Assembly: GCA_964625145.1 (NCBI GenBank)
Contig: CAZVAQ010000003.1
Location: 1 to 39,143 of the forward strand
DNA: 39,143 bases
Direction: 5' to 3'
Source: an uncultured Candidatus Sumerlaeota bacterium
GTDB taxonomy: Bacteria > Sumerlaeota > Sumerlaeia > SLMS01 > JAHLLQ01
The position numbers and the translations under genes are program-made. Positions 11,313-38,440 of this stretch are shown piece by piece. Each line of letters starts with the position of its first letter. The stretch's first letter is position 1. The notes below the pieces were generated by a model. It was not told where the DNA came from. It did not search any database and was given only the letters and a program-made list of their open reading frames with translations.

Positions 11313-11317
11313 CGGCG

Positions 11318-12478
11318 ATGCGCATTGTCCTGGCAGGGATCATCGGTCGTTACCCATGGGGCGGAGTCACCTGGTGCAGCCTCATGTACCTGCTTGGGCT
11401 GCGCAAGCTCGGCCACGAAGTGTGGTATTTGGAGGACACGTGCGAATGCAACTTCGACCCGGAGCTGAACGCGATCTCCACCGACCCGGGCTATGCGTTG
11501 CGTTACATCGATACCAACCTGCGGCCGTTCGGATTTGGCGACCGCTGGTGCTATGTGGACTACACCGGCCGCCATCACGGGATCGATGAAGCGCGCATGC
11601 GCGAAATCTGCAACTCGGCGGATCTGTTTCTCGTACTCTCGGGGGGATGCTGGGTGTGGCGCGACCACTATCGTGCCATACCCCGGAAGGCATTCATCGA
11701 CAGCGATCCTGCCTTCACGCAACTGGCCATCGAAAACGCCCGCGTCGAATCGGATCGCGAGGGAAAGAAGTCATGGTATGTTGATTTCTTCGAGGAGTAC
11801 GACACGCTGTTTACCTTCGGCGCAGGGATTGCCAATGGGTTCTCGTCTGTTCAATCGCATTTGAAGTGGCATCACACGTGGCAACCCATCGACACCAGTC
11901 TTTGGAACCCGGCCGCGTTGCCCCTCCCGCCGCGCAGGAGATTCACAACCATCATGACATGGGCCGTGGAGAGTTTCGAAGACATTGGCGGAAACAAGGA
12001 CCATGAGTTCCTGAAGATTATCGATCTGCCTTCACGATTGGGACCGGATCGCGCCGCGGCAATTGAGCTGGCCGTCACCCGCCCGCCAACGCTGCTGCGC
12101 CAAAAGGGCTGGAATTGCCAGGACGCCCTGCCGATCTCCAGAGACTTGTGGCGCTATCACGCCTACATTGCCTCCAGCGCGGCCGAGTTCAGCGTGGCCA
12201 AGGAGACATATGTTCATACCCGATCAGGATGGTTCAGCGACCGAAGCGAATGTTATCTCGCCGCGGGGCGTCCAGTTGTGTTGCAGGATACCGGCTTCTC
12301 GAATGTGCTGCCGGGGGGGGAGGGGATTGTCGCGTGGAACACCGCCGATGAAGCCATCGCGGCATTGGACGAGGTGGAGTCGCGCTACGCTCTCCACGCG
12401 CGCCGCGCCCGCGAGCTCGCGATGATCTACTTCCGGGACACGGTGGTGCTGCAGAAGCTGCTGGATCGCGTGTCGTGA
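11318..12478 (+). CDS. GT-B-fold glycosyltransferase-like protein
   Basis: MRIVLAG..RYPWGGVTW..YLLGLRKLGHEVWYLED, DSDPAFTQ, SGWFSDRSECYLAAGRPVVLQDTGFS. GGAG RBS upstream. Confidence 0.75.
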   Translation: MRIVLAGIIGRYPWGGVTWCSLMYLLGLRKLGHEVWYLEDTCECNFDPELNAISTDPGYALRYIDTNLRPFGFGDRWCYVDYTGRHHGIDEARMREICNSADLFLVLSGGCWVWRDHYRAIPRKAFIDSDPAFTQLAIENARVESDREGKKSWYVDFFEEYDTLFTFGAGIANGFSSVQSHLKWHHTWQPIDTSLWNPAALPLPPRRRFTTIMTWAVESFEDIGGNKDHEFLKIIDLPSRLGPDRAAAIELAVTRPPTLLRQKGWNCQDALPISRDLWRYHAYIASSAAEFSVAKETYVHTRSGWFSDRSECYLAAGRPVVLQDTGFSNVLPGGEGIVAWNTADEAIAALDEVESRYALHARRARELAMIYFRDTVVLQKLLDRVS

Positions 12479-15983: not shown

Positions 15984-17426
15984 TCAATGAACCGATAGCC
16001 AGCTTCCGGGGACGGTTGGTGGATCAACCACGTTGGCTGATTCCCAATAGATGTTGTCGATGAAGAAGGTTGGTGTCGCCGCGCTGGTTCCATTCGCCAG
16101 GAAGTCAAAGCCAATGCCCTCAAGGAGGCCGTCGAACTGGCCATTGCCGGCGACCTCCGCGATGTTGAAACCCGCGGCGTCGGCGGGGATGGTGTACTTC
16201 TCCCCTTCCGCGGTGGGGGAGAAGGTGTGGTTGGTGATCCAGATATCGCCGTCCATGTCCAACAGCACAAAGCGGACGAGTTGCGAACCCGGCATGTTCG
16301 TCCGCATGCGCCATGTCAGTCGTTCAGCGCTCTGCAGGTCCAAGGGACTCTCTGGCAGGCGATACCGCACGCCAAAGTTCGCCCCTGCATTGAAGTTTGC
16401 CGACGCACGCAGCGAAGCGTTGCCTTCATCAACCTCGTTGGGCACGGTGGTGATCGCCATGCCGTTGTATGCGGTGCCGAATCGCGTCCACTCGCCCGGA
16501 GATCCCATGGGGAAGCCACCAGAGGTCGTGTCGGATTCGATATCCGTGATGAGATGCGGTGCACCCGGGTCTTCGGGGTCCGGCGAGTCGATCGCATTGT
16601 GGCTTGTGCTGTCGAAATAGACGAAGTGGTCTCGGGTGGGCAATGCGTCGCCCATGAAGTTCAAGTTCTCCAAACTGTCGTAGATGCGAAAATTGGTCGG
16701 GAATGCATTCGAAGGACCATACGCGCATGTGTAGGTGGGACGAGCCTTGATGCGCGGGCCGCCTTCGGCCTGGATGTACCAGTCCACAACGTAGCGCCCT
16801 AGCTGATCCTCGTCCAACTCAATTGTCAGCTTGTACCATCCACCGGGTCGGACGTGATGAGCGGGATCCGCCGGTTGAAAGACCAGGCTGCTGCCCGGAT
16901 CACCGGATCGCCCCGCGGCATTGTCCGGCTGCACGGTCAGGTAGACGAGCAATGCATTTGCCGGCAGGTTCGGAATGCTGTTTCGGACGCTGGCGCGGCC
17001 GGGGCCGATCTCGAAATCGATCTCGCGCGCGGCATTGGCGGCTGCTCCTGACTGATCCGAATACAGAAACGCGCCCAGACTCACCCGTGCATTGGCTTCC
17101 ATCGGCGGGATATACACGACCCACTCGTACATGCCGGTGGTGAAGGTCTGCTGCGTGCGGATCTTCGGGCGTTGGCCAGTGCCTGCCGCGGTCTTGAAGA
17201 GCATCACGCCGCGGCCATCAAACGTCGTCGCCTGATACGGTCCCGGTGCCGTGGCTGGAGGAGACATCGCCTGGGATGCATCACTCCATCCTTGCGGCGC
17301 CACTCCGGGTGCACCGGGCGTATCAAAGTTCCATGTGACGCCTTGTGCGTGCACGATGGCGACAGCCAGGACTTGCAAAGCCACAAGCAGGCTGATCCAT
17401 CCGTACTCCCTGTTCCACATCTGCAT
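15984..17426 (-). CDS. Secreted GH16-like glycoside hydrolase with C-terminal 'GEWTRFG' CBM-like domain
   Basis: Signal peptide, FTTGMYEW...GAFLY...REIDFEIG (ExDxE GH16 signature), Pro/Asp linker, a repeat-family domain and the C-terminal tail PPTVPGSWLSVH. Confidence 0.75.
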   Translation of the reverse strand: MQMWNREYGWISLLVALQVLAVAIVHAQGVTWNFDTPGAPGVAPQGWSDASQAMSPPATAPGPYQATTFDGRGVMLFKTAAGTGQRPKIRTQQTFTTGMYEWVVYIPPMEANARVSLGAFLYSDQSGAAANAAREIDFEIGPGRASVRNSIPNLPANALLVYLTVQPDNAAGRSGDPGSSLVFQPADPAHHVRPGGWYKLTIELDEDQLGRYVVDWYIQAEGGPRIKARPTYTCAYGPSNAFPTNFRIYDSLENLNFMGDALPTRDHFVYFDSTSHNAIDSPDPEDPGAPHLITDIESDTTSGGFPMGSPGEWTRFGTAYNGMAITTVPNEVDEGNASLRASANFNAGANFGVRYRLPESPLDLQSAERLTWRMRTNMPGSQLVRFVLLDMDGDIWITNHTFSPTAEGEKYTIPADAAGFNIAEVAGNGQFDGLLEGIGFDFLANGTSAATPTFFIDNIYWESANVVDPPTVPGSWLSVH

Positions 17427-17449
17427 TTGTCGGCCTCTCTCGCATGAAG

Positions 17450-17483
17450 ACGGGGGATGCAGCCAATGGACTGCATCCCCCGT
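17450..17483 (-). terminator. Strong intergenic stem-loop (partial terminator or mRNA stabiliser)
   Basis: ACGGGGGATGCAG-CCAATGGA-CTGCATCCCCCGT forms a perfect 13-bp stem downstream of the repeat-protein stop, with only a weak U-tract. Confidence 0.65.
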
Positions 17484-17527
17484 TGTGAGTCACTCGGAAT
17501 CGTCCAACCACTATTGAAACGACTCAA

Positions 17528-20368
17528 TTACTCGATGTAGATCCAATCGCCAACCGGTACGACGACGTCACCGCCCAGGACGACCTTGTCCACCCTGAAC
17601 GTATCGGTCCCGGCAAAGGTCATGTTGTCGAAGTTGAGTCCCCACAGAACGATTGCATCGGCGCTCAGGATGCCGTCGCCGCCCTGTTCGCCCAGTGTGA
17701 GGTCACCGTCGAACAGCAGCGTGACTGTGGTCCATTCGGTGCTGACGGGGAGATTGTCACTCGTCCAGACGTCGCCGTCGGCCTCGAACAATGCGAACTC
17801 TACCGTTGTGGCGGCATCGGCGACCGTCGCCTTCACGTCGAAGCTGATGCGATCCCACGGCGACCAATTGGCCGGTGAGCCGTAGGGCTTGTGGCGCACA
17901 CCGACGCGCGGGCCATCGTCCCAGGACGCGCCGACCTGCAGGTACCGCTCGCCATCGGTGGCCTCCTGCGCATCCGTCACGATGACGATGCCGTTGTAGG
18001 CTGCGCCGAAGCGGGTCCACTCTCCTTCAGTGCCCGTGTTGATGTAGTCCTCCGGCGGGAACCCACCCGAGGTAAAGTCCGGCAGTTCAATGCTGGTCAC
18101 AACCGGCAGTGACGGCGGTGGGACCGGGGACGCATCGTCGTAATAGATCTCGTCGATATGAAACTCGCTGAAGCCCGTTTGGCCGTTGCGCAGGAACGTG
18201 AAGCCAATCTGGACGATGCTGCTCAGATCCAGGACGCCGTCGCCGGCCTGTTCAGCCAACTGCGCTGTTACGGACAGGTCCTCGGTGAACTTGATGTATG
18301 GCAGACCGACATTGTGGCTGATGCCTTCCCAGATATCACCGTCGGATTCCACCACCGCGAACTTCACGCGATGCAGCCCCGGATCGGATTGACGGGCCAT
18401 GAAGGAGATGGTCGGCCCGGCGGAGATATCCAGTGGTGCATTGGGAATGTCGTAGCGAATGCCAAAACCCCAGCTGGCGTCCGCATCCCAATCGGCATAG
18501 ACGCCGAGGGACTTGTTGCCTGCTGCGGCTTGACTCGGATCCTCGTCGATGTACATGCCGCCAAAATGCACGCCAAAGCGTGTCCACTCGCCGGGATTCC
18601 CTTGGCCGGGGAAGCGCGGGGGGTCCTGCAGGGTATCCTCTTCTATCCCCGTGATCAGATTGTCAGCGATGGGGAGCGGATCGTCGTAGTAGATCTCGTC
18701 AAAATGGAATGTCGTGGAGCCCGTTTGCCCATTGCGCATGAAGGTGAAGCCAATGTGGCTCACGTTCGTGAGGTCAAGGATGCCGTCGCCACCTTGATCG
18801 GCGATCTCCAGCGTCTGCTGCAGGTTCTCGCGATACACTTCATAGGTCGTGGTGATGTCATGCGACGCGCCTGTCCAGATGTCGCCGTCCAGCTCCACAA
18901 CCGTGAACTGCACGCGATGAGCGCCGCGATTGGTCTGGCGGGCCATGAAGGAAATATCAGGCCCGACCGAAAGGTCGAACGGAACCTCCGTCAGGTCGTA
19001 GCGAACGCCGAATCCCCAGCTCGCGTCCGCATCCCAGTCACCCACAACCGCGAGGGACTTGCTGCCGGATGCCGCGTTGGCCGGGTTCGTGTCGATCGAC
19101 ATGCCGCCAAAGTGTACGCCAAAACGCGTCCACTCGCCCGGATCACCCTGGCCGGGGAAACGCGGCGGGTCCTGCACCGCATCGTTCTCGATGCCGGTGA
19201 TCAGGTTGTCCGGCGGCGGAGGTGGCTCCTCCTGCAGGCGGATGTTGTCCACGAACAACGATTGAGTACCCGCGCCCGCGGTGCTGCGGAAATCAACACC
19301 GATGCGTACCAGGGAGGAAAGATCTGTCGAAGGTCCCGGTCCGTCGGCAAAGATGAGATCCGTGCCCAGGTTCACTGTCTGTGTGGACCAGCTCGTGCCG
19401 ACAGGCACATTCGACGAGATGGAAATGTTGCCGGCAGTGTCCTCCACGACAAAGTTCACCGTGCTGCCTGCGACCACCGCGTTCGCGCGGATGTCGTACG
19501 CAACGATGGGATATGCCGACCAGTCGGTGTTGCCTGTGTAGAGTCCGTAGCGCGAACCAACTGACCCCCCCGCGCTCCAGTCTGCGTCGAGCTGCAGGAA
19601 ATGGGAGCCATCGGACGCATTCCCAGCATCCTGCTGGATGCCAATGCCGTTGTACGCCGCGCCAAAGCGCGTCCACTCGCCCTCCACGCCCGGGGGGAAA
19701 CCACCGCTCGTGAAGTCGGGAGGTTCGATGCTTGTCACCAGCGGCAGGGCCGGCAGTGTTGCCGACTCCTCTGCAGCGTAGTAGACTTCGTCGAAGTTGA
19801 AGGTCGAGTACCCTACCTGCCCGTTGCGCAGGATGGTGAAGCCGATCTGCACCACATTGCTCAGGTCCAGCACGCTGTTGCCGCCCGGATCGGCCAGCTC
19901 CAAGGTCGCGGACAAGTCCTCGTAAAACTTTGTGTAGTCGGTGCCAACCTCGTGCTGAACGCCGGTCCAGATGTCACCGTCACCCTCCACAACGGTGAAC
20001 TGCACGCGGGCGGCGCCGGGAGTCGTTTGGCGCGCCATAAAGGAGATCTGGGGCGCAGAAGACAGGTCCAGAGGCGCGGAGAGCACGTCATAGCGTATCC
20101 CCATCCCCCAACCGCCGGCATCCCAGTTCGCACCGACTGCCAGCGAATTGTTTCCGGCAGCGGCGTTGGCGGGATTCGTGTCGATGACCATGCTGTCAAA
20201 CGGCACGCCAAACCGGGTCCATTCACCCGGGGGACCGCCATCGGGGAACCCGGGAGGCACCGCAACCGTATCCGTCTCGATCCCGGTGATCAAGATTGGC
20301 GCCGCGGAAGCGCCCGTGCCCGCGGCGAGGATTACGGCCGTGGAAAGCAAGAATGCCAATCTCTTCAT
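17528..20368 (-). CDS. Secreted non-catalytic protein (~946 aa) with five tandem ~180-aa CBM-like repeats
   Basis: Signal peptide MKRLAFLLSTAVILAAGTGASA/AP with AAGGA upstream. Five repeats each contain ITGIE/VTSIE...GEWTRFG...G.RY...(F/V)D(E/N/K)(I/V), and four of the five contain DGD(I/V)W. C-terminal tail VVVPVGDWIYIE. Confidence 0.85.
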   Translation of the reverse strand: MKRLAFLLSTAVILAAGTGASAAPILITGIETDTVAVPPGFPDGGPPGEWTRFGVPFDSMVIDTNPANAAAGNNSLAVGANWDAGGWGMGIRYDVLSAPLDLSSAPQISFMARQTTPGAARVQFTVVEGDGDIWTGVQHEVGTDYTKFYEDLSATLELADPGGNSVLDLSNVVQIGFTILRNGQVGYSTFNFDEVYYAAEESATLPALPLVTSIEPPDFTSGGFPPGVEGEWTRFGAAYNGIGIQQDAGNASDGSHFLQLDADWSAGGSVGSRYGLYTGNTDWSAYPIVAYDIRANAVVAGSTVNFVVEDTAGNISISSNVPVGTSWSTQTVNLGTDLIFADGPGPSTDLSSLVRIGVDFRSTAGAGTQSLFVDNIRLQEEPPPPPDNLITGIENDAVQDPPRFPGQGDPGEWTRFGVHFGGMSIDTNPANAASGSKSLAVVGDWDADASWGFGVRYDLTEVPFDLSVGPDISFMARQTNRGAHRVQFTVVELDGDIWTGASHDITTTYEVYRENLQQTLEIADQGGDGILDLTNVSHIGFTFMRNGQTGSTTFHFDEIYYDDPLPIADNLITGIEEDTLQDPPRFPGQGNPGEWTRFGVHFGGMYIDEDPSQAAAGNKSLGVYADWDADASWGFGIRYDIPNAPLDISAGPTISFMARQSDPGLHRVKFAVVESDGDIWEGISHNVGLPYIKFTEDLSVTAQLAEQAGDGVLDLSSIVQIGFTFLRNGQTGFSEFHIDEIYYDDASPVPPPSLPVVTSIELPDFTSGGFPPEDYINTGTEGEWTRFGAAYNGIVIVTDAQEATDGERYLQVGASWDDGPRVGVRHKPYGSPANWSPWDRISFDVKATVADAATTVEFALFEADGDVWTSDNLPVSTEWTTVTLLFDGDLTLGEQGGDGILSADAIVLWGLNFDNMTFAGTDTFRVDKVVLGGDVVVPVGDWIYIE

Positions 20369-20406: not shown

Positions 20407-21045
20407 TCAGTTGAAGCGGGGAACATCCCCGAGACTGATGGTTCCGTTGCTGGGGTCGTATGCTCCGGTGATTGGCCACAGGTTGATCGGCTTGCCCATG
20501 TTGCGGGCGGATGACTCGCGGTCGGGCCCAAAGGAGGACAGCACCCAGTTCAGCGAAACTCCCTCGCGCCGGATTGCTTGTCCTTCGTTGAACACATCGG
20601 TTGAACTGGCGGGCGGCCAGTAATTGATCCACAGCAGATAGCCAAATGTTCCCGGCAGGTTGGCGTTGAAGGGCTTTTGCTCCTGAAAGACATCGCGCGT
20701 CGCCTCGATGCTCGACAGGTAGGCAACCGGCGACGTCAGCGGCACGAAGGTTTCCATCGTGGAGTATTCCCAACGCTGCCCCGCGGGAACACCCGCCAGG
20801 TTGCGCTCAATCCAATCCATCGGGTATTTGTTGTAATCCACATGGTAGGACTCAATCGCCGTGGCGACGGTGCGCATGTCGGCGGCCATCCGCGTGACCT
20901 TGGAGCGCACCTGCGCCTCCAGGAAGTTGGGGACGGCAATGGCGGCCAGGATCGCGATGATGGCCACGACGATTAGCAGTTCGATCAGGGTGAAGGCCGA
21001 GAGACGACGCTGTTGCACAATACGAGCGGGGGAAGATGGAAGCAT
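20407..21045 (-). CDS. Prepilin-type N-methylation (GspG/pseudopilin-like) protein
   Basis: A|FTLIELLIVVAIIAILAAIAVPNFLEAQVRSKV, LTSPVAY, SFGPD, YDPSNGTISLGDV. The start is placed at the nearest ATG (21045). Confidence 0.9.
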   Translation of the reverse strand: MLPSSPARIVQQRRLSAFTLIELLIVVAIIAILAAIAVPNFLEAQVRSKVTRMAADMRTVATAIESYHVDYNKYPMDWIERNLAGVPAGQRWEYSTMETFVPLTSPVAYLSSIEATRDVFQEQKPFNANLPGTFGYLLWINYWPPASSTDVFNEGQAIRREGVSLNWVLSSFGPDRESSARNMGKPINLWPITGAYDPSNGTISLGDVPRFN

Positions 21046-21160
21046 CTTGATGGGCCCTTTCGCCCCGGTAGGGATCAGGCCTGCGGGATCGCAGACTTCC
21101 GCAGGCCCTTCTGACTGGATGATGCCCCGGTTAGCTGCTCCCCCCGGCGAAGTCAACAGG

Positions 21161-21269
21161 TTTTGTGCAGACTGGAATAAATTATCCTTGCACTCCACTG
21201 CGGTCAATAATAACCCTCCGCGCGTATTGGCAAACTGGATCACAGACTTTCATTCCAGACGAGAAATTA
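21161..21269. promoter_or_regulatory. Two candidate ROK-repressor operators in a divergent promoter region
   Basis: Imperfect 21-bp palindromes TTTTGTGCAGACTGGAATAAA (21161-21181) and TTCATTCCAGACGAGAAATTA (21249-21269) share the half-site TT(T/C)ATTCCAG. A TTGACT-17-TAACCG minus-strand promoter-like element lies next to the first site. Confidence 0.5.
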
Positions 21270-21288
21270 CCCCTCGCGGGGCCATGCC

Positions 21289-22365
21289 ATGCAGTTCACC
21301 AGCGCCGACACCTCCAGCCTGCGGTCGCACAACACTCTGGTACTCCTGCGCCAGATCCGCGCCCTGCAGCCGGTCAGCGCGAAGGTTCTGGTCGAGAAGA
21401 CCGGCATGCGCGCCTCCAGTATCTCCCGCCTTCTTCGCATCCTGGCCGAGCGCGGCCTCGTCGCCTCCCGCGGCGTGGAGTCCAGCAACGGTTCCAGCGG
21501 CCGCCCCGCGGAGTTCTGGGGCATCAATGGCGGATTCGGTGCCGCTGTTGGGCTCTACCTCGCCTCAAACCTGGTGGCGGGCGTCACTGTCGACCTTACG
21601 GGCAAGATCCTCGACACCTGTGTCGTGCCCCTGCGCGATCCCAGCTCCCTGACACCCCGAAAAATCCACAATCTCCTGCGCCAGGCTTTCGATCGACTCA
21701 CCTCCTCCGGACATATCGCCTCCCACCCACTCATCGGCGTCGGAGTCGCAACCATGGGCCTCGTCGATCAGGAGAACTTCCGCATCGGCTACTTCGATGC
21801 CAGTCTCAACCTGTCGGATTTTGCCCGTCTTTGTGGCGGCAAGCTTCATCTGGAGAATGACGCGAACGTGGTGGCGCGCGGCGAAGTCACACACGGCTCA
21901 CTGGCCGGAGTCTCCGACGCTGTCGTGCTCTACGCTCACGAAGGAATCGGCGCGGGGTTGATCGTCAACGGGGCCTTGGTCAAGGGCAGCCATGGTGCAG
22001 CCGGCGAGGTGGGTTATCGTGCCTGCCAGTTGATCTCAAACCCCCTCGACAGCTCCGCGCCCGATGTTCTTGAGCGTTTCCACAACGGCACCTGCTCGAT
22101 CATCAACTTCCTGAACCCGGAAGTCCTGCTGCTTACCGGAGATCTCTACGGTCTCCCCCCTGAAGTGATCGCCACGCTGCGCCGTCGCATCGCATCGAAC
22201 ACGAATCGCGTCGCGCGGGAAGTACGCATCTCCGTCTCGCCATGCGATCCCATGGGGGTTGCCCGGCACATCGCCACCATCGTCCTCGACGAGGAAGTCT
22301 TTGCCACACCCACTGTCCTGCATTCTGCCTGCGCGGCGATGCTGGAAGCCCAGGAGGCCAGTTGA
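21289..22365 (+). CDS. ROK family transcriptional regulator
   Basis: N-terminal wHTH (LRSHN..LLRQIR...SISRLLRIL...GLV...SSGRPA), LENDAN, GIGAGLIVNG...GSHGAAGEVG, NFLNPEVLLLTG. Confidence 0.93.
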   Translation: MQFTSADTSSLRSHNTLVLLRQIRALQPVSAKVLVEKTGMRASSISRLLRILAERGLVASRGVESSNGSSGRPAEFWGINGGFGAAVGLYLASNLVAGVTVDLTGKILDTCVVPLRDPSSLTPRKIHNLLRQAFDRLTSSGHIASHPLIGVGVATMGLVDQENFRIGYFDASLNLSDFARLCGGKLHLENDANVVARGEVTHGSLAGVSDAVVLYAHEGIGAGLIVNGALVKGSHGAAGEVGYRACQLISNPLDSSAPDVLERFHNGTCSIINFLNPEVLLLTGDLYGLPPEVIATLRRRIASNTNRVAREVRISVSPCDPMGVARHIATIVLDEEVFATPTVLHSACAAMLEAQEAS

Positions 22366-24482
22366 TGAGACAGTCACTCTGGGCGATCGCTGCGGCCCTG
22401 ATGATCTCCACCGCATCTGCAAAACCGGTTGTCGAAGTGCCAAGCGTGCCACCCGAGCAATTGTCCACAATGGGCACCCGTGTGGAGCTTCGCCACTTGC
22501 TGGACGGTCAGGAAATCGCCGAGGCTCCGGCCATCGCATGGCTTGGCCATCATGACGGACAACTGCTGGTGGAGCTGCACGTGAGCGGCCGCAACCAAGC
22601 GCCCATCGCCGACCGCGATACTCTCCGGATCTTTGAAGGCCCCGCCGTCGAGGTCTTCCTCTCGGTCATGGAGGAACCCGGGCACGGCTACTATCACATC
22701 GCCACGAATCCGCGTGCCGCCATCTACGATGAGTTCGTTCGCGATGCCGGATGGAATCGCAATGTCCGCTGGGACATGCCTGCAACTGCAACGTTGGTCC
22801 CTTCGGAGGCGGATTCCTGGGCCGTGCGCCTCGAGATCCCACTCGCCGTCTTGCGGCGTCGCGTGCCGGAGGACGCACCGGTCACCACCCTCGACCAGGA
22901 GATTAGCCTGCAATTGGGCACGGCGGCCGTTCTGGCCGATGGCCGCAACTTGGCCGTCGCTTGGTCGCCCACAAACACCACCTTTCACACGCCGTCGGAT
23001 TTTGGAAGGCTGCGCCTGCTTGATCCCATTCCCCAGTTCAACGCTCGGGTCGAAGGCAGTCTCGAGATGGCTGGTGAGGAGGTTCGCGTGACTGCATCCG
23101 AATCAGGCGAGCTGCAGGGCGATCGAAGTGTGGAGATTTTGCTGCGGTTGGAGGAAGGCGCGGAGCCACTCGTATCCGTCACCACAGGCACTTCCCCCAC
23201 CAAGATCGAGGAACTGGCAGAGTCGGTGCCACTCCTCTCCACTGGAAAGGTGCATTCCATGGTCACCAGGCTGATGGACGCAAACGGCGTCCTAGTCGAC
23301 CAGCATGTCACAGCATGGCCCTATCGCGAGATGCCCCCAGTCGTCGCCATCCACGAGCGTTTCCACGACACGTTGCCACTGCGGCTCCACACATCCGCGG
23401 CAAAGCCGCTTCAACACATCGAGATCCGGACGACGGGCGAGAACCCCCGCATTGTCTGGAAATCAGCCGGCCAACCAACCTCCGGCGACATTGACATCGA
23501 TGCCTCGACATGGAGTTCCGGCGTCTATAGGTTGGTGTGGCAGGTTGGCGATCAAGTCAGCACCACCCACATCGCCCGCCTCCCGGAACCATTCCACTTT
23601 GGTCCGGATGAGTGGGCATTCTGGGGCTATGCGCCCGACGAAGAGTTGCTTGCGGAGTTTGCCACCTTCCATGAGATGACCGGCGCCGACATCGCCATCA
23701 CCGGTCTCATCTATGGCGGCTCCATCGATCCCGAAACCGGCGCCATGAGCGCCTTCAACCTGGAGTCCATGAACGCGTGGCAGCGTGCCCTGCCCGGTGC
23801 AAAGCTCCACCTCATGATCGACGGCTGGGGCAACTTTGACCTCCTGACCGATGATCAGGTTGAACACATAACCACGCGCCTGGTCGACGAGCTGATGAAC
23901 GAGGACATCGTCGCGGGCATTCACTTCGATCTTGAGCCCTACCGCCCCAGCCAGATCCGCATCACCCGCGCTCTCACCCGCAAGGGCTGGACAAAGGGCT
24001 TGAGCATGGCCACGGCACTGGCCACCACCATACCGCTGGAGCAATGGGCCAGCCTCGACTTTATGGTCGCCATGAACTACGATCTGGGCCGCACGCCGGA
24101 TGTCTTCCAACGCCGCGCCGCACAGAATGCGCGTGCCTTTGTCGAGACCGCCCGCGACGCGCGCCGGCAAGTGCTCATCGGCATCCCCGTCATCGCCACA
24201 CATCACGAGTATGGACTGGAAGTGGAAGCCGCCACGGGCAACATTACCCAAGGCGACCGGGACTCCACGATGCTTCCCTTCGTGATTCCGGCAATGGAGA
24301 TTGTGGGTGAGCTGCGCGACGATCCGGAGCTCGGTCACTTTGTCGGCCCGCCGACGCTGTGGGGTGCCCTGGCCCGCGGGCATCATGTCGGCCAGCGCCG
24401 GTATCGTTATTTCCCCACCACCATCACCGGTGATGTGTGGGGACATCTGTTGGAGTTCGATCGCGAAAGAGCCGCGCCCTGA
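22365..24482 (+). CDS. Secreted modular protein: CBM9/DOMON-like domain plus GH18-like TIM barrel
   Basis: Signal peptide. VEVFL...YYHIATNP..AIYD...WAVRLEIPL...WSPT..FHTPSDFG.L (CBM9-like). C-terminal AGIHFDLEPY, LDFMVAMNYD, VLIGIP (GH18-like strands). TGATG coupling to the ROK gene. Confidence 0.6.
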   Translation: MRQSLWAIAAALMISTASAKPVVEVPSVPPEQLSTMGTRVELRHLLDGQEIAEAPAIAWLGHHDGQLLVELHVSGRNQAPIADRDTLRIFEGPAVEVFLSVMEEPGHGYYHIATNPRAAIYDEFVRDAGWNRNVRWDMPATATLVPSEADSWAVRLEIPLAVLRRRVPEDAPVTTLDQEISLQLGTAAVLADGRNLAVAWSPTNTTFHTPSDFGRLRLLDPIPQFNARVEGSLEMAGEEVRVTASESGELQGDRSVEILLRLEEGAEPLVSVTTGTSPTKIEELAESVPLLSTGKVHSMVTRLMDANGVLVDQHVTAWPYREMPPVVAIHERFHDTLPLRLHTSAAKPLQHIEIRTTGENPRIVWKSAGQPTSGDIDIDASTWSSGVYRLVWQVGDQVSTTHIARLPEPFHFGPDEWAFWGYAPDEELLAEFATFHEMTGADIAITGLIYGGSIDPETGAMSAFNLESMNAWQRALPGAKLHLMIDGWGNFDLLTDDQVEHITTRLVDELMNEDIVAGIHFDLEPYRPSQIRITRALTRKGWTKGLSMATALATTIPLEQWASLDFMVAMNYDLGRTPDVFQRRAAQNARAFVETARDARRQVLIGIPVIATHHEYGLEVEAATGNITQGDRDSTMLPFVIPAMEIVGELRDDPELGHFVGPPTLWGALARGHHVGQRRYRYFPTTITGDVWGHLLEFDRERAAP

Positions 24483-25738
24483 TGCGTCGCCTGCTTCCGT
24501 CAATCGTGCTCGTCGTCATGGCGACGCTGTGGGTGTCCTGTGGCAATGCAGGCGATGACGGCAGCAGTGACGGCGTGGTCACCCTGCGCTTGTGGGTGTT
24601 CAGCGTTGATGTCGAGCAGGACCTGCGTCCTGTCCTTGACGAATTCGAGTCGCAAAATCCCGGGATCCGCGTCCATGCGGAGCAGCTCCCATGGGACCGC
24701 GGTTTCGAACGCATCCTCCTTTCCCTGGCCACGCGTCGTCCCCCTGATGTCTGCGAGCTCGGCATGACTTGGTTGGCACCGTTTGCGCACGAGGATGTTC
24801 TCGCGGACCTGACCGACACGTTGACCGACACGGCCGGCCAGCGCACCCTCATTGAGGCGTCCACCTACAAGGGGCGCCTTTACGCCGCACCATGGATGGT
24901 CGGAACGCGGCTTTTCTTCTACAACCGCGCCATGCTGCGCAATGCCGGCTATCCCGACGCGCAGCCGCCACGCACCTGGGACGAGCTGATGGAAATGAGC
25001 GCCGCCATCAAGCGCGCATACCCAGATCGTCATGTCATTGGCCTGCCCGCCGGCGACGCGGAGTTCACATGGATGACATTTTTCTCCTTCCTGGCATCCG
25101 GGCAGGTTCCGTTGCTGGATGCAGGGACGCGTCAACCGCTTCTGGACACTCCCGAGTTCATGCAGACGCTCGACTTCTACCGCGGCCTGAAGCCGTACGC
25201 GCTGATCGATCGCGGACCTCAACTCGACCGGGCATTCGGGACCGAGCGCATTGCCTTTCATGTTAGCGGAGCGTGGAACTTCACACTGCTGCCCCGCGAC
25301 TATCCGACGCTGGACTATGGCTATGCGCACATCCCCATGCCGGATTTCGTGGACGAGGACAAAGGCGGCGGTGCCATGGCCGGTGGGCAACTTCTCGTCG
25401 CGTTCCGCCAAGGCAAGCATCCGGAGGAATCGCGCAAGTTGCTCGCATTCCTTGCGTCACGGCCCATCGCGACCCGCCTGACTTTGCCGATCCGCTCGTT
25501 GCTCCCCGCATTTGCCGATGCCCACGAGTTCCCAGAATTCCAGAACGATCCCGCGCGCGCGTTTCACGCGCAGATGATCGACCGGGCCTACGCTCCCGAC
25601 GCCGTGCCGTACTGGGAGGAAATGCGCCGCGATCTTGTCACCCTGATCGACACTGCGCTGCTGACCGACGCACCACTCGACGCGCAACTCGAGCAGACCT
25701 CCGCGCACTGGAGCGGTCTCGTGGAGGAGTTCCGATGA
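24482..25738 (+). CDS. Sugar ABC transporter substrate-binding lipoprotein
   Basis: Lipobox WVS/C, FESQNPGIRV..EQLPW, PPDV, GRLYAAPW, FYNRAML..AG...PPRTWDEL, SGAWN. Confidence 0.93.
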   Translation: MRRLLPSIVLVVMATLWVSCGNAGDDGSSDGVVTLRLWVFSVDVEQDLRPVLDEFESQNPGIRVHAEQLPWDRGFERILLSLATRRPPDVCELGMTWLAPFAHEDVLADLTDTLTDTAGQRTLIEASTYKGRLYAAPWMVGTRLFFYNRAMLRNAGYPDAQPPRTWDELMEMSAAIKRAYPDRHVIGLPAGDAEFTWMTFFSFLASGQVPLLDAGTRQPLLDTPEFMQTLDFYRGLKPYALIDRGPQLDRAFGTERIAFHVSGAWNFTLLPRDYPTLDYGYAHIPMPDFVDEDKGGGAMAGGQLLVAFRQGKHPEESRKLLAFLASRPIATRLTLPIRSLLPAFADAHEFPEFQNDPARAFHAQMIDRAYAPDAVPYWEEMRRDLVTLIDTALLTDAPLDAQLEQTSAHWSGLVEEFR

Positions 25739-26655
25739 GCAGTGCACTCCCAACCGCGAGACGATTGCGGGGCCGGCCCGCCCGGCCAAACGGCTGGCAG
25801 ACGTTGCTGCTCCTATCACCATGGCTGGTGACATTTGCCATCTTTGGCATCTTCCCGCCGGTCTACGCGTTGGCGATCAGCTTCTTCGACTACAGCCTCC
25901 TGAATCCGCAGTGGGACTTTGTCGGGATGGACAACTACCATTCCGTCATAACCGCTCCCATCTTCTGGAAGTCATTGTGGAACTCGCTCTTTTATGCACT
26001 CGGTACGGTGCCCGTGATCATGATGCTGTCGCTGGCCCTGGCCGCGTTCCTGAATCAGCCGATGCCTCTCAAGGGCCTGTTCCGCGCGGGGTTCTTTCTG
26101 CCCACTGTCACTTCCATCATCGTCATCTCGCTCGTCTTCAAGTTTCTCTACGCCACCGACGGAATGGCAGATCGCTTGCTGGAAGGGATCGGCATTCCGC
26201 CGCCGCGCCCATCGTGGCTCCTCAACCCCACACTGGCACTCCCATCCCTGATGGTCATGGGGATCTGGACCAGCATCGGGTTCTATGCGGTCCTGTTCCT
26301 GGCCGCCATGCAGGCCATACCCGGGCATTTGTATGAAGCGGCGCGGATCGAAGGCGCCGGACCGGTGCGACGGTTTCTGTCGATCACCGTTCCCATGCTG
26401 CGACCGACCATCGCCTTCGCGCTGTTCCTCGCGACCATCAACGCCATCCAGGTCTTCCCGGAAGTTTTCACCATGACCCAGGGCGGTCCCATGGGATCGA
26501 CCACAACGTTGGTATTCTGGATCTACGAGCTTGGCTTCACGCGGTTCCAGATGGGACGCGCGTCGGCGGCAACGGTCTTCCTCGTCATCATTCTTGTCGC
26601 CGTTGTGTGGCTCCAATCGAGGATCCTTCGCACAGGCAAGGGGGTTGGTGAATGA
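25735..26655 (+). CDS. Carbohydrate ABC transporter permease (MalF/UgpA-like)
   Basis: FVGMDNY, FRAGFFLP, EAA loop (LYEAARIEGA), ITVPMLRP, TQGGP, GRASA. Confidence 0.95.
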   Translation: MSSALPTARRLRGRPARPNGWQTLLLLSPWLVTFAIFGIFPPVYALAISFFDYSLLNPQWDFVGMDNYHSVITAPIFWKSLWNSLFYALGTVPVIMMLSLALAAFLNQPMPLKGLFRAGFFLPTVTSIIVISLVFKFLYATDGMADRLLEGIGIPPPRPSWLLNPTLALPSLMVMGIWTSIGFYAVLFLAAMQAIPGHLYEAARIEGAGPVRRFLSITVPMLRPTIAFALFLATINAIQVFPEVFTMTQGGPMGSTTTLVFWIYELGFTRFQMGRASAATVFLVIILVAVVWLQSRILRTGKGVGE

Positions 26656-28010
26656 AGATCCCCCGTGAATTGCGCGAGCTGTTTGGGAGCGTGCCCGGCC
26701 TTCTTGCCTTCGCAGTGACCAGCATTCTGCTGCTGGCATCGCTTTACCCGCTCATCATCATGGTGCGCACTGCCTTCATGTCCGTTGGCGATCCCATCGA
26801 AGGTACCCCTGCGGAGATCATCCTGGCCGAGGCCAACGACAGCGGGATGACCTTGCAGAACCTGCCGATGATGGCAGGAATGTGGGATGATGAGAGAGGC
26901 TTTGCGAGGGATGACTCGACATGGAACTACCGTGAATATAATAGGCCCAAGACGAATCCAGATGATGTCGTCGCTGGATTCGAGGCAAATCGAAACGGTG
27001 CCGCCTTTCACTTCACTTGGGGAGGTGACCTTCGACGCTTTTCCCGTTTCGAGATCGAGGCCAGCGAGGGAGATCGATGGTCAATCGCATGGCATAACAT
27101 CAACGGTGACATTGCAATCCAGCAGGTGGAGTCCATCACAGGTCCAATGTGGGTCGTACCGGACCTCAACATCTCTGTATCCTTACCGGTAGATCGCCGT
27201 GGCCAGCCATTTGACCCCGTCCAGATCACCGGGTTCACGCTGATTCCGCGAAGTCAGTCGGAACACTGGTTCCGCGTGACCCTTTACCCCCGCCTGTTCA
27301 CGTTTGCGAACTTCCTCGACGTCTGGCGCGGCGACAATTTCTCGCGCTACACGTTCAACAGCCTGCTCGTCGCCATCTGCGTCACACTGGGCAGCGTCAT
27401 CACCAGCCTGCTCGCCGGTTATGCCTTTGCACGCAGCGAATGGAAATTCCGCGGCGCCTTCTGGGCAATCATGCTGGGCAGCATGCTCATCCCCTCCCAG
27501 GTGCTCTTGATCCCCGCCTTCCTCATCCTGCAGCACTTTCCGCTCTTCGGCGGCAACGACCTGTTTGGACAGGGAGGCATCGGCATGCTCGATTCCTACT
27601 CGGGTCTGATCCTGCCGAACCTTGTCATGCCCCTGGGCATCTTCCTTGTTCGGCAGAGTCTGTTGTCGCTCCCCGATGCCTTGGAAGAGGCCGCCGTCAT
27701 GGATGGCGCCTCGATCCTGCAATTGTTGCGCTACATTGTGGCGCCGATGCTGCGCCCGATTCTGGCGACCATCGCATTGCTTGCGTTCCTCTTCAACTGG
27801 AACTCATTCATCTTCCCGCTCATCCTGATCCAGACGCCTGAAATGCGCACGCTCCCCGTCGGGCTCGCGCTCTTCAGCGCCCGGATGGAAGTGGACTGGG
27901 TGCATCTCATGGCCGCGTCTACCATCACCGCCCTGCCGATCTTCATCATGTTCCTGTTCTTCCAGCGGCAACTGATTGCCGGATTTGTCCACGAAGGAGT
28001 CAAGGGATGA
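26652..28010 (+). CDS. Carbohydrate ABC transporter permease (MalG/UgpE-like) with a large extracytoplasmic insertion
   Basis: FNSLLVA, AGYAFAR, LDSYSGLILP, EAA loop (LEEAAVMDGAS), WNSFIFP, TLPVGL. About 170 extra polar residues follow the first TM. Confidence 0.93.
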   Translation: MKIPRELRELFGSVPGLLAFAVTSILLLASLYPLIIMVRTAFMSVGDPIEGTPAEIILAEANDSGMTLQNLPMMAGMWDDERGFARDDSTWNYREYNRPKTNPDDVVAGFEANRNGAAFHFTWGGDLRRFSRFEIEASEGDRWSIAWHNINGDIAIQQVESITGPMWVVPDLNISVSLPVDRRGQPFDPVQITGFTLIPRSQSEHWFRVTLYPRLFTFANFLDVWRGDNFSRYTFNSLLVAICVTLGSVITSLLAGYAFARSEWKFRGAFWAIMLGSMLIPSQVLLIPAFLILQHFPLFGGNDLFGQGGIGMLDSYSGLILPNLVMPLGIFLVRQSLLSLPDALEEAAVMDGASILQLLRYIVAPMLRPILATIALLAFLFNWNSFIFPLILIQTPEMRTLPVGLALFSARMEVDWVHLMAASTITALPIFIMFLFFQRQLIAGFVHEGVKG

Positions 28011-28969
28011 TCGCCCACGCACGAACACTCCTGCTGGTTGCTGCCGTCGGATTGCTTTGTCACGGCTTCTGCGAGGCACAACAGCCCGGCACGGCTTATC
28101 GATGGCGGGCGCCGGGGGCATATTTCGGCGAGCCGACACCCATCTCAGACCGCGACGAGGCCAGCACTTCACAATCGTCGTTCAGCATCGGCTATCGCGC
28201 AGAGCCGGTCACCGAAACCCGCAGTCGCGACATACTGATCGGCAAGTACCGGGTCGTCCCAAATCCTGCCCTGGGCTATGCCTACGCAGGGTTCGCGATT
28301 CCATTCAACACGCCGATGGCCTTGAACAGTCAGGCGGCCTTTCAGTTCGACGCGCGCACCGATTCATCCATCGACCGGTTGGAAGTGGTTCTGCGCGACA
28401 CATCACGTCGCCGCGCCACCCATGTGGTTACGCTCGAACCATCGAAGGAATGGACCACCGTGTCGGTCCCCGCCGCACAACTGGCTTCCGTGGACCAGGA
28501 TGCCATTGAGAGCGCCGCCGTCGTTGTGCTGGCGCCGGGAGAGGGAACCATTGAAGTCAGCAACGTGCAACTTCCGGTTCGTGCACTCGTCAAGGATGTC
28601 AGCGTTATCGAGGAAATTCGCACAGCCCCCAAGTGGTACACCGATGCCGAAATGGGAGTGCGCGTGGCGCAGCGTCTCGACCGGCCCATCCTCATCCGCC
28701 TCAACAACTCGAGTGAGGGGGCCATGACGCGATTGGACAGTGATCAATGGCGCGGCGTCACTGAGCAGACTGTCAATATTGTGCTTTCATCGGAGGACTT
28801 GAGCTCGCTTCCGGAAGGATTTGAGCTAATGTCCTTCCGATCGCAAGATCCCCTGATCTACCTGTTTGGACCGGGCGGGGAATTGATCATTGATGCCGCC
28901 GCATCAGACAGTGGCGCAAAGTCAATGGCGGATGCATTGGCGAAACGGGCTGGGAGCCGAAGCCAATGA
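28007..28969 (+). CDS. Secreted hypothetical protein: CBM-like beta-sandwich plus degenerate thioredoxin-like domain
   Basis: Signal peptide. YAGF.IPF..P..L....FQFDAR...LEVVLRD...WTTVSVP...IEVSNVQL, then PKWYTDAEMGVRVAQRLDRPILI without a CxxC. Confidence 0.6.
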   Translation: MIAHARTLLLVAAVGLLCHGFCEAQQPGTAYRWRAPGAYFGEPTPISDRDEASTSQSSFSIGYRAEPVTETRSRDILIGKYRVVPNPALGYAYAGFAIPFNTPMALNSQAAFQFDARTDSSIDRLEVVLRDTSRRRATHVVTLEPSKEWTTVSVPAAQLASVDQDAIESAAVVVLAPGEGTIEVSNVQLPVRALVKDVSVIEEIRTAPKWYTDAEMGVRVAQRLDRPILIRLNNSSEGAMTRLDSDQWRGVTEQTVNIVLSSEDLSSLPEGFELMSFRSQDPLIYLFGPGGELIIDAAASDSGAKSMADALAKRAGSRSQ

Positions 28970-31587
28970 TTGCCAATGATGCCACCCTTGCCGGGCTGCT
29001 GCGGCAACTCTGCCGTGAGGCCCGGGCAGCGCAACGTGATGAGTCATTCCCTTCCTTCGGACACGGAGTCCATGCATTGCCCGGCAACCGCCTGCTCATC
29101 ACTCCCCGTGCTCGCGGCGAGAGCCGCTATCCCTACGTCCACGATGGCATGAACTTCTGGGTCTACGGCTCGGGATACATGCACGCGAACGATGGATTGT
29201 TTGCGCTCTTCCCACGCCGGACAGAGGGACAGGAGCCCGGCATCGCATTCATGGCCGCCACGCCGGCAGAAGATGGCTGGAAGCCTTTTCCCCTGTTGGG
29301 CGTTCCCCACACACCCGAAGACGACGCCGCGCCCGCTGACCGCTTTGCCGTCTTCTCCCGCACCCACGCGTGTTTTGTCACAGTGAGGGAAGGTTTGCGT
29401 TACCTTCTGCGAGTACTTCCGGTCAGTTCGCACGAGATCGTCTTCACTCTTTGCGTGCTCAATGAGGGTACTGCGCCGGAATCGTTGCTTCTATCCGCCT
29501 TCTTCAACCCGATGTTGCGACACCAACTTCACGAGACCGACGAGGACCGGTGGTTTCGCAGTGTTCGCATCCGGCAGCGGGCCGATCATGCGGCGTCGTT
29601 CCTCTTTCACGTCAATGAAGACAAGGATCGCACGACATCGCTGGCGCAATACGCCATCATCGACCGCCAATGTGTTGCCGGTGGGGGAGCACAGATTCAC
29701 CGGACGGAAGAAACACCCTCGCGAGTGGCCTACATGGGAGGTGTGTCGCGGTCATTGGCCAATGCGCGCTCCCTGCGCACTGGAACATTTGGGGAATCCT
29801 GCTCCCGGCGTACATTCGTCGAACCCACCATTGCGGGGGACATGATTCATCTACAACTTCCACCCGGGGGTTCTTTCCGCGCCGACTACGTGTTCCGGGT
29901 GACCGAGGATCATGATCAGGCTCTGCACTGGCACAAAGAGGGTACTGCCCACAGGTGCCTTGAGAACGTCGTCGCGGAGCGGGAAGCAGCCGAGACCCGC
30001 CTTGCGGCCTCACTGGCACTGAAGGTGGCCGAATCTCGAAGTGAGTCGCTCTCTGCTGACGCCTTCAACGCCTTCCTGCCGCACCTGATGAAGCAGGTGG
30101 AGTTCTGCTCCCTGATTCGCGGTTACGTGCAGCTTTCCGAGAACTCCCTGATCGGCATTCGCGACATCTTCCAGGCCCTGGAGGCTCTCACGTATTGGCG
30201 ACCCGACGCCGCCCGAGCCAAGATGCTCGAGGCCCTCGGCTTCACGCTGGAAGATGGCCGATGCCTTCGCCAATACTCGCTACCCAATCGCAATGGCGAA
30301 CCGGGCCGCGCCGACGTCCGTCCCTTCATTGACCAGGGGGTGTGGGTCATATCTGCGATCACCACGTACGTGCGCCTCACCGGCGATGCCGCCTTCCTTT
30401 CAGAAAGTTGCGGCTACCATCGGCTTGTGGATCCAGGATCAAGTCGAGTGGTCAAGTCGACGCGCGTGGATTTAGTGCTCGATCATCTGCGTCGCATCCT
30501 CGACTATATGCTTGCTCAAATCGACCCCCGCACCGGTTGCCTGCGCGCGCTGTACGGCGATTGGAATGACGCCCTGGATGGCCTTGGTACCCTGCCCGGT
30601 GATTCCGCTGGCTACGGCACGGGAGTCAGCGTGATGGCTTCGCTTCAGTTGCTTCAGAATCTGCGCGAAATGCGCGAACTGCTTCAGCATGTACCGAAGC
30701 CAGGTACCATGCAGGAACTCGACCGTCTCGGTGAGCAGGAGGAGCGACTGGCCACTTCCTTGCTCAAGCATGCAATACATGGTACCTCGGAAGGTTCCCA
30801 GCGCATCATTCACGGTTGGGGCCATGAAGGATCGTATTGCGTCGGCAGCTACCACGATGTCGATGGAGCCTCTCGCGACAGCCTCACCTCCAATGCCTTC
30901 TGGGTCCTATCCGGCATGCTCGAGCGACATCCACGGACACGCGCTGACATCCTTGCCGCGTTCGATCGGCTCGATTCCAAGTATGGCTTGCGCACGTTCC
31001 AGCCGGAGTTTCCGGCAGGGGAGGGGCGCTTTGGCCGCATTGGCAAGCTCCCGCCCGGCACCGCTGAAAACGCGGGCACATACGCGCATGCCACCGCCTT
31101 CGGCATCATGGCCTTGTTCGAAATGGGAGAACCGCAGCGCGCATGGCGACAACTCGAGAAGATCCTGCCCTTCGCGCCACTCCACACGAACCTCTCCCAC
31201 TCTCCATTTGTCATGCCCAACTCCTACGGCTATAATCCAGAGCTTGGGATCGATGGGCAGAACATGAACGATTGGCAGACCGGCAGCTCCAACGTCGTTC
31301 TCAAGACGATCCTTCGCCATGTCGTTGGACTTCGCGTGCAGGGAGACAGCATCCTGCTGCGCCCCGCTGCGTGGTGCCCATTCCGGAATTGGCAAGTTCA
31401 GATCACGGCACGTACCCGCCGCTTTCAAATCCACTACAGTTGTTCCGATGTTGGGGCGCGAACGTTTACTGTAAACGGAGAGCAATACCCCGGACAACTC
31501 AACGCACGAGAAGGAGCAGTCGGCATTCTCCTGGACCAATCGCATTTTCCGGAAAAGTCAATTGTGCAGATCGTCATAAGCGACTAA
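28966..31587 (+). CDS. GH94-family glycoside phosphorylase
   Basis: IGIRDIFQ (G.RD..Q), GDWNDALDG (catalytic DWND), GVSVMA, PGTAENAGTYAHA, WQTGS. No signal peptide. Confidence 0.85.
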   Translation: MIANDATLAGLLRQLCREARAAQRDESFPSFGHGVHALPGNRLLITPRARGESRYPYVHDGMNFWVYGSGYMHANDGLFALFPRRTEGQEPGIAFMAATPAEDGWKPFPLLGVPHTPEDDAAPADRFAVFSRTHACFVTVREGLRYLLRVLPVSSHEIVFTLCVLNEGTAPESLLLSAFFNPMLRHQLHETDEDRWFRSVRIRQRADHAASFLFHVNEDKDRTTSLAQYAIIDRQCVAGGGAQIHRTEETPSRVAYMGGVSRSLANARSLRTGTFGESCSRRTFVEPTIAGDMIHLQLPPGGSFRADYVFRVTEDHDQALHWHKEGTAHRCLENVVAEREAAETRLAASLALKVAESRSESLSADAFNAFLPHLMKQVEFCSLIRGYVQLSENSLIGIRDIFQALEALTYWRPDAARAKMLEALGFTLEDGRCLRQYSLPNRNGEPGRADVRPFIDQGVWVISAITTYVRLTGDAAFLSESCGYHRLVDPGSSRVVKSTRVDLVLDHLRRILDYMLAQIDPRTGCLRALYGDWNDALDGLGTLPGDSAGYGTGVSVMASLQLLQNLREMRELLQHVPKPGTMQELDRLGEQEERLATSLLKHAIHGTSEGSQRIIHGWGHEGSYCVGSYHDVDGASRDSLTSNAFWVLSGMLERHPRTRADILAAFDRLDSKYGLRTFQPEFPAGEGRFGRIGKLPPGTAENAGTYAHATAFGIMALFEMGEPQRAWRQLEKILPFAPLHTNLSHSPFVMPNSYGYNPELGIDGQNMNDWQTGSSNVVLKTILRHVVGLRVQGDSILLRPAAWCPFRNWQVQITARTRRFQIHYSCSDVGARTFTVNGEQYPGQLNAREGAVGILLDQSHFPEKSIVQIVISD

Positions 31588-33915: not shown

Positions 33916-33978
33916 TACCTTGTCCTTCCATGCCTTGCTGGCAGCGGGGTGTTGCACAAAGCTTCTGCATCGGGCCCT

Positions 33979-34037
33979 GAAAAAGACAAGCAGAGGAACG
34001 GCGTCGGGGTTGTACTCCCCTCGGGCCGTCCCTCTGC
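33979..34037 (-). terminator. Rho-independent terminator-like hairpin between the CBM-like gene and the downstream hydrolase
   Basis: Minus strand GCAGAGGGACGGC...GCCGTTCCTCTGC long stem followed by TTGTCTTTTTC. Confidence 0.7.
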
Positions 34038-34057
34038 CAGTCACCCCCTCGCCAGGA

Positions 34058-35263: not shown

Positions 35264-35390
35264 GGGTGCATACCGTCCTGTCTTGGGATGGTGGAGCCCA
35301 TGAAAGGGGCTCCGGGGGGGTCTCATTGCCGCTCGCATCTACTGTCCTCGCCTGCCGTTTGGGGAGGTTCCTCTGGTGGCCGGCAGGGTC

Positions 35391-35508: not shown

Positions 35509-35622
35509 TTATGCGCTGATTGCTCCGTTTCGAGTTCCGGCAACCGTCCCGAATCCCGCGAGGACAACGGCTGTCAGTTGCATCGCTCCATGCGGGGAAA
35601 ATCATTTACCGGAATGCGGAGT

Positions 35623-38436: not shown

Positions 38437-38440
38437 GGAC

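Follow-up and report, generated by a model that had tools for sequence, protein, structure and literature searches.

A tandem array of CBM11-like repeats, predicted to capture glycans, beside a GH16-like enzyme in a Sumerlaeota sugar locus

The carbohydrate-binding modules (CBMs) of family 11 (PDB 1v0a and 6r31, both of CtCBM11 from Lic26A-Cel5E of Clostridium thermocellum; Pfam PF03425) are the closest described relatives of the protein domain considered here. Two papers ascribe to CBM11 the binding of beta-1,3-1,4-glucan (PMC8612152) and conserved calcium sites (PMC4416756). A parallel in gene context is provided by the surface glycan-binding proteins B (SGBP-B) of Bacteroidota polysaccharide utilisation loci, non-catalytic multi-domain glycan-binding proteins that stand beside an endo-glycanase and a transporter and have a related CBM-like fold (7k44, Z 10.4). 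The window analysed here is a stretch of 39,143 nucleotides from an uncultured Candidatus Sumerlaeota bacterium (assembly GCA_964625145.1, contig CAZVAQ010000003.1, positions 1 to 39,143 of the forward strand). One of its genes encodes a protein of 946 amino acids made of five CBM11-like repeats with the motif GEWTRFG, and the next gene a 480-residue protein in which a sixth repeat follows a domain resembling glycoside hydrolase family 16 (GH16). With a probability of about 0.7, we read the array as an exported, non-catalytic glycan-capture protein, built of calcium-stabilised CBM11-like sandwiches, that would keep a beta-linked polysaccharide close to the cell for the neighbouring predicted GH16 enzyme in a beta-glycan utilisation locus. 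The features on which this model-based reading draws are:

17528..20368, minus strand: repeat protein, 946 amino acids; a likely signal peptide is followed by the A-B-A-A-B series of CBM11-like domains and a short C-terminal Trp tail
20303..20368, minus strand: likely signal peptide of the repeat protein (basic start, hydrophobic core, A-x-A; judged by eye)
19745..20296, minus strand: R1, subtype A (repeat comparison and domain tree)
19208..19744, minus strand: R2, subtype B (repeat comparison and domain tree)
18662..19207, minus strand: R3, subtype A (repeat comparison and domain tree)
18107..18661, minus strand: R4, subtype A (modelled jointly with R5)
17561..18106, minus strand: R5, subtype B (modelled jointly with R4; domain tree)
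15984..17426, minus strand: GH16-like protein, 480 amino acids, with a likely signal peptide, a GH16-fold domain, one repeat and a Trp tail
16587..17342, minus strand: GH16-fold domain (fold search), with EIDFE, an EXDXE motif, at 17010-17024
16017..16556, minus strand: G6, the sixth repeat, assigned to a separate GH16-proximal subtype (identities, fold search, tree and approximately unbiased (AU) test)

The GEWTRFG motif lies at residues 48, 230, 411, 593 and 782 of the 946-residue protein and, for the sixth time, at residue 311 of the 480-residue open reading frame (ORF; 15984-17426, minus strand). No further copy occurs in the six frames of the window, and these two proteins give the only strong repeat matches in the genome. 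The repeats are 179-192 residues long; amino acid identity is 61-64 % among the A copies (R1, R3, R4), 42 % between the B copies (R2, R5) and 31-34 % between A and B, and all 10 repeat pairs tested lie far above 200 shuffles (z 24-119). An earlier reading of the letters alone, below called the sequence-only reading, had described five repeats of about 180 residues in the order A-B-A-A-B and had called the domains acidic and aromatic-rich. Both descriptions hold, with D+E making up 11-17 % of the repeat domains, K+R 3-5 % and W+Y+F 9.5-12 %. The mature 946-residue chain has an isoelectric point (pI) of about 4.05, 131 acidic versus 39 basic residues and no cysteine, and Pfam and NCBIfam scans detect no catalytic domain in it. 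Export of both proteins is likely. Both also end in a short tail (window positions 17531-17560 and 15987-16016) in which a Trp stands 3-5 residues before the C-terminus. This tail recurs in most of the orthologues and in several further large ORFs of the genome, has no match in NCBIfam and is possibly a sorting signal.

Single-sequence searches of the PDB with either protein return nothing relevant. Repeat profiles of 6, 29 and 28 sequences all have CtCBM11 as their top PDB match, with E-values of 2.6e-4, 1.5e-7 and 2.7e-9. An AlphaFold2 model of R4-R5 (predicted local distance difference test, pLDDT, 90) contains two beta-sandwiches, and among 48,161 chains its top match is again CtCBM11 (1v0a; Z 16.8, root-mean-square deviation (rmsd) 2.8, 151 aligned residues, 18 % identity); a second fold comparison gives 6r31 at Z 17.2, and the G6 model reaches Z 16.7 with 1v0a. 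CBMs or glycan-active proteins make up most of the 50 best fold matches of R4-R5, and an Atlas cluster search returns unnamed or mixed CBM-like clusters alone. Among 33 relatives scanned, the gathering cut-off of Pfam CBM_11 (27 bits) is passed by P0003 (58.9 bits), P0004 (60.1), P0015 (28.5) and P0014 (27.2), while P0013 stays under it at 24.4; the remote relative P0034 is also above it.

At the level of single residues, positions aligned to E91, E101, D141 and D163 of CtCBM11, which we take to be its calcium ligands, are kept in 48, 47, 41 and 60 of 60 domains. Of these 60, 48 also have a conserved N-terminal Glu. The surface-type residues W26, R28 and F29 are kept in 59, 52 and 51 domains. 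The CtCBM11 cleft is presumably formed by Tyr22, Tyr53, Arg126, Asp128 and Tyr129, and F29 of the WTRFG segment is a plausible counterpart of Tyr22; the 1v0a profile alignments start at residue 50-53, beyond Tyr22, and the fold search comes without residue pairs. In sum, the repeat has in common with CBM11 the predicted beta-sandwich (Z 16.8-17.2), a size of about 175 residues, the aligned calcium-site acids, DG-x-x-W and LDL motifs and the fusion to glycoside hydrolases. It differs in sequence identity, in having no Tyr129-type loop, in its conserved FP-GEWTRFG segment, in its catalysis-free arrays of 2-5 copies, in its A, B and GH16-proximal subtypes and in a score below the family cut-off. 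We regard it as a divergent relative of CBM11 that probably works in a similar way, and that is not to be filed as a member.

The multivalent CBM with calcium-binding loops proposed by the sequence-only reading is supported by fold, profile and gene context. Its suggestion that the module is possibly unclassified stands only in the narrow sense that the array protein lies below all Pfam and NCBIfam cut-offs (with no NCBIfam match for either protein), but the domain is a recognisable CBM11 relative and some orthologues do pass CBM_11.

A number of points weigh against glycan capture. The 946-residue protein reaches 21.9 bits with CBM_11, the 480-residue GH16-linked protein does not match it, and when 29 repeats are searched singly, only 4 find CBM_11 with E <= 0.1. 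Identity to CtCBM11 is only 18 %, and 1v0a is tied with the CBM-containing mannanase 1wky (Z 16.7) and the viral turret protein 8qpg (Z 16.2); the non-glycan complex I factor 7zkq (Z 14.9) and many CBM families follow. R126-Y129 of CtCBM11 aligns to a shorter loop without Tyr, and Y53 to Gly or variable residues, a Trp standing one position earlier in 13 of 13 A domains; because the Tyr129 loop and Y53 are lost, the known CtCBM11 binding site is not preserved. The binding of glycan and of calcium by the repeats is itself predicted from sequence and model. No membrane anchor was found in the array protein, so that its sequence does not establish retention at the cell surface. The N-terminal 250 residues of the 480-residue protein have no match in Pfam (E 0.01, including PF00722), NCBIfam or PDB sequences. 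Finally, the six genomes in which the genes of the locus co-occur (see below) are relatives, and their co-occurrence is therefore not independent evidence.

The occurrence of the same fold in non-glycan roles (7zkq, 8qpg) raises the alternative that the array is a protein scaffold or spacer. Its repeats would then attach to one another, to the pilin-like protein or to the tails of enzymes and so hold together an enzyme complex outside the cell, much as the CIA30/NDUFAF1 form of the fold (PF08547) binds proteins. P0003 and P0004 indeed exceed the Pfam CIA30 cut-off of 24 bits (28.0 and 31.6 bits), although the window protein has no match to PF08547 at E 0.01, and a pilin-like gene lies directly upstream of the array gene in the window and in the related loci L004-L007. 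While dockerin-bearing proteins exist in the genome, neither of the two proteins has a cohesin or dockerin match in Pfam, copies of the domain are attached to glycoside hydrolase folds and, as remote matches, to GH18 proteins, which is the usual place of a CBM, and the copy number of the orthologues varies from 2 to 5. We consider such a scaffold unlikely, and the sequence-only reading, which had named it beside the CBM, gains no support on this point. The array also differs from CIA30/NDUFAF1, with which it shares the fold (7zkq, Z 14.9), in being exported, repeated and located in a sugar locus rather than involved in respiratory-complex assembly. From the cellulosome scaffoldin it differs in the missing cohesin and dockerin matches and in the best fold of its repeat. 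SGBP-B differs from it in a lipoprotein Cys, which the array lacks, in the ABC-type uptake encoded here and in that all domains of the array are CBM-like repeats. No SusC/SusD family member is found among the 26 window proteins scanned.

The partner of the proposed glycan-capture protein was assigned by fold. The model of the 480-residue protein (pLDDT 87) matches GH16 enzymes at Z 17-19, in agreement with Foldseek; the best match of its GH16-like domain is the mixed-linkage glucanase 5nbo (Z 19.1, rmsd 3.0, 210 aligned residues), and the top 21 fold rows are glycanase jelly-rolls. This bears out the GH16-like label given to it from the letters alone. Structural identities are 9-22 %, the highest (22 %) being to the chitin-glucan transglycosylase Crh5, and the fold scores are tied among many activities. 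According to PMC6827312, EXDXE and EXDXXE mark the catalytic strand of GH16 and EXDXE is the licheninase motif. EXDXE is present in 12 of 14 GH16-like proteins checked; P0017 has nothing matching the pattern, and P0022 reads EIDAFE, an EXDXXE-like spacing. In the Atlas, one cluster set has PF00722 in 15 % of its members at score 0.95. The likeness to the EXDXE enzymes of GH16 (licheninases of GH16_21, Crh transglycosylases, XTH/EG16) consists in the jelly-roll fold and the motif; the neighbour differs from them by having no Pfam or PDB sequence match, and its subfamily is not assignable.

A narrower alternative is a pure glucan locus, in which a CBM11-type array would have mixed-linkage glucan specificity. 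We give it a low probability. CBM11 is the top sequence and fold match, with some orthologues above its cut-off, the enzyme model comes closest to a mixed-linkage glucanase and the enzyme has the motif of licheninases; on the other side, the Y129 loop is missing, the window protein scores below the cut-off and the GH16 fold matches are tied over many activities at Z 17-19. Moreover, a GH18-like gene in all six clusters examined and a glucosamine-6-phosphate deaminase-like (NagB-like) gene in the related locus L038 would be superfluous there.

Fusion of the repeat to a GH16-like domain, as seen for G6, is found in 16 proteins of the tree set. In some GH16-like proteins (P0005 residues 604-1160, P0006 residues 265-814, P0011 residues 295-844, P0017 residues 273-866, with P0009 similar and weaker), the repeats are non-tandem and their pieces come in the order N, N, C, N, (M), M, C, M, C. 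This fits nested repeats, in which a loop of domain 1 houses domain 2, and domain 2 in turn houses domain 3 in circularly permuted form. In P0006, P0011 and P0017 a permuted profile covers the full length of the inner unit (88-112 bits), but ordinary tandem junctions also score on that profile, so that the piece order is the real evidence for nesting. Two members of the P0011 cluster are named Phycisphaerae.

The sequence-only reading had taken the sixth copy for B-type. Overall identity of G6 is 36-40 % with the A copies and 31-35 % with the B copies, its likeness to B being limited to N-terminal words. A tree computed from 60 full-length domains, with 27 partial pieces set aside, has a B clade of 25 rows (support 96/95) that leaves G6 outside, where it clusters with six other GH16-proximal copies at 99/98. 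The split of G6 from B recurs in a tree of 34 of these rows, from which long branches and near-duplicates had been removed. An AU test on the 34 rows does not reject a tree in which G6 is forced to join B (p 0.142), so G6 outside B is the best tree and not proof. On present evidence the B label is not supported, G6 being closer to A by identity and outside the B clade in the best trees.

R1, R3, R4 and their P0002 orthologues form one clade (100/97). Each of the three is 78-88 % identical in amino acids to its L004 orthologue versus 62-64 % to its paralogues, and by these comparisons the repeat expansion is lineage-specific and not recent, the R3/R4 duplication being older than a same-genus split. 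A recent duplication of R3 and R4 had been suggested from their DNA; the similarity itself is real in the stretch quoted (77 of 96 nucleotides), but over the full length identity falls to 69 % of nucleotides and 64 % of amino acids, and four-fold sites are near saturation (30 of 57 alike, about 33 % expected), which together with the closer L004 orthologues speaks against a recent date. The subtypes also differ in residues at potential cleft positions. W64 (R3 numbering) is present in 13 of 13 A domains and absent from the common residues of B, and at position 158 Arg is found in 10 of the 13 A domains, against Asn in 20 of 23 domains of type B, so that A and B possibly act at different epitopes. 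Catalysis-free arrays have 2, 3 or 5 domains, mostly with an A-like domain first and B last.

Further genes of the locus lie upstream of the array gene, and a hairpin separates it from the GH16-like gene:

17450..17483, minus strand: 15-bp GC-rich hairpin without U-tract, in the gap that separates the repeat and GH16-like genes (z -4.69)
20407..21036, minus strand: pilin/pseudopilin-like gene with N-methylation motif, directly upstream of the repeat gene
21289..22365, plus strand: ROK-family regulator, divergently transcribed
22365..24482, plus strand: protein whose N-terminus weakly resembles CBM9 and whose C-terminal barrel is GH18-like (motifs HFDLEPY and MNYDL)
24437..28010, plus strand: sugar ABC transporter, consisting of a solute-binding protein and two permeases (family scan)
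28007..28969, plus strand: conserved unknown locus protein with a very weak repeat-profile match
28966..31587, plus strand: GH94 glycoside phosphorylase, to which all solved members of the family are distant (best E 1.7e-21)

The GH18 motifs (D-x-E, M-x-Y-D) of the 22365 protein are invariant in 6 of 6 orthologues; it has no Pfam match, and its profile against 20 GH18 domains gives a probability of 84 % and a pairwise E of 7.6e-6 (reversed control, E 0.41). In L004-L007 the gene order is the same, with the pilin-like, repeat and GH16-like genes divergent from the ROK, 22365-type and ABC genes. L038 has the same genes rearranged, on a contig without ABC genes, and the added NagB-like gene, a weak match below cut-off (E 0.0029). 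A strong hairpin stands at the same site in L004-L007 and is absent from L038 (4 of 5 relatives, evaluated without shuffle control); a sigma-70 scan finds 0 promoters, and no terminator at the hairpin. A conserved upstream element ending in TTGAC (L004-L007, and window about 21100-21280) marks a possible promoter and ROK operator; in the window it comes with ATTCCAG-like half-sites that point in opposite directions.

Among 75 genomes of the phylum, the repeat profile matches in 9, strongly in 6. The GH16-like gene is found in 7 (the six strong-repeat genomes plus one), and so is the GH94 orthologue (the same six plus one whose contig ends inside the transporter genes). The genomes with these genes are kin, mostly incomplete and probably overlap with L004-L007, so that the counts are not independent. 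In a scan of metagenome contigs the pattern matched 63 times, and none of the matches was a relative. Most of the stretch is contained in each of 14 DNA runs, of which seven are labelled fungus metagenome, two compost, two manure, one soil and two plain metagenome. RNA-library contigs from 3 runs cover parts of the locus at low depth and were not counted as expression.

This patchy occurrence, with strong copies in 6 of 75 genomes, and the tight linkage to genes for sugar import and phosphorolysis also bear on another idea, namely that the array binds the cell's own surface glycan as an acidic, calcium-bridged coat or adhesin and has no part in foraging. Both count against it and make it very improbable in our view, although the low pI, the excess of acidic residues, the tandem build and the conserved calcium-site residues would suit such a role.

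For the preferred glycan-capture reading, a sequence of steps can be proposed. The pilin-like, repeat and GH16-like genes, whose order is conserved, probably form one transcript, divergent from the ROK repressor, and the hairpin could set the level of the array above that of the enzyme. Both products would be exported, with the common Trp tail as a putative sorting signal. The repeats would then bind the glycan with avidity; the subtype-specific residues suggest that A and B may contact separate epitopes. Meanwhile, the GH16-like enzyme, tethered via its own G6, and the GH18-like enzyme would cleave the polymer, as folds and motifs predict. By analogy with their families, the ABC transporter would import the oligomers and GH94 phosphorolyse them.

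The substrate is a matter of tentative ranking, with beta-glucan as the first candidate, a chitin-glucan or other N-acetylglucosamine (GlcNAc)-bearing glycan as a close second and any other substrate less likely. Sumerlaeota are described as scavengers of chitin and cellulose in PMC8092238. Together with the GH18-like and NagB-like genes and the fungus metagenomes, hints of which none is decisive, this makes the fungal wall as plausible as plant beta-glucan.

We found no description of the domain or the locus in the literature on Sumerlaeota and carbohydrates, the motif itself not having been searched and subscription papers lying outside. The fold itself and the principle of tandem CBMs are already well known. 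What the locus adds is a testable picture of how an uncultured phylum, which scavenges refractory polysaccharides according to PMC8092238, may capture substrate without SusC/SusD. It also offers candidate members of a possible new CBM family, or of a subfamily within CBM11, and three carbohydrate enzymes (GH16-like, GH18-like and GH94) that are missed or left unplaced by family libraries. A bolder proposal, which we think rather doubtful, is that domains with GEWTRFG make up a new CBM family, a sister group of CBM11, and that each of the A, B and GH16-proximal subtypes is directed at another component of the fungal wall (beta-glucan, chitin, their cross-link). Sumerlaeota would then display an enzyme-free multivalent array from a locus of its own kind, with an unassigned GH16, a cryptic GH18-like protein and an unassigned GH94, and distant relatives would use nested, circularly permuted assemblies.

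The catalysis-free array design is reused in the genome, as a second array (L085:7159-9735, G000:C77) has four CBM11-like domains of another family (CBM_11, 35.3 bits), a Dockerin_1 tail, a pilin-like gene upstream and adjacent sugar ABC genes. Further Dockerin_1 proteins occur at L086 and L088 (G000:C13 and C237), one with a canonical GH16 and one with SGBP_B_XBD matches. In 10 of 25 GH18 loci of the phylum (L065, L066, L069-L073, L075, L076 and L080), ORFs match the repeat profile weakly (E 6e-7 to 6e-4), and the alignments available cover the C-terminal half.

Within the window, positions 31687-39133 hold a second cassette with a pilin-like gene, two DUF5060/GH5-like proteins, the larger of which matches PDB 9gmj at E 7e-81, and a protein of two domains in which the likeness to the repeat is very weak; ABC genes follow just past the window. 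A literature search gave no paper on 9gmj. The DUF5060/GH5-like genes (31687-38436) are present in 8 of 75 genomes and in 2 of the 6 with the array, and since they lie outside the conserved core they were not used to infer the substrate. Pilin-type genes are greatly expanded in the genome, with 38 ORFs carrying the N-terminal motif, 32 of which share a YDPxNG-like tail. A rule of one pilin per sugar locus was rejected, as pilin-like genes lie near sugar ABC permeases in 3 of 32 cases, against a random mean of 1.5 (p 0.20). At 4282-12478, finally, the window has a glycosyltransferase (GT) operon, the first gene of which fuses a GH72/GH2-like N-terminal domain to GT2, and which also comprises a pilin-like gene, an ABC exporter, a GT4 and a pyruvyl transferase.

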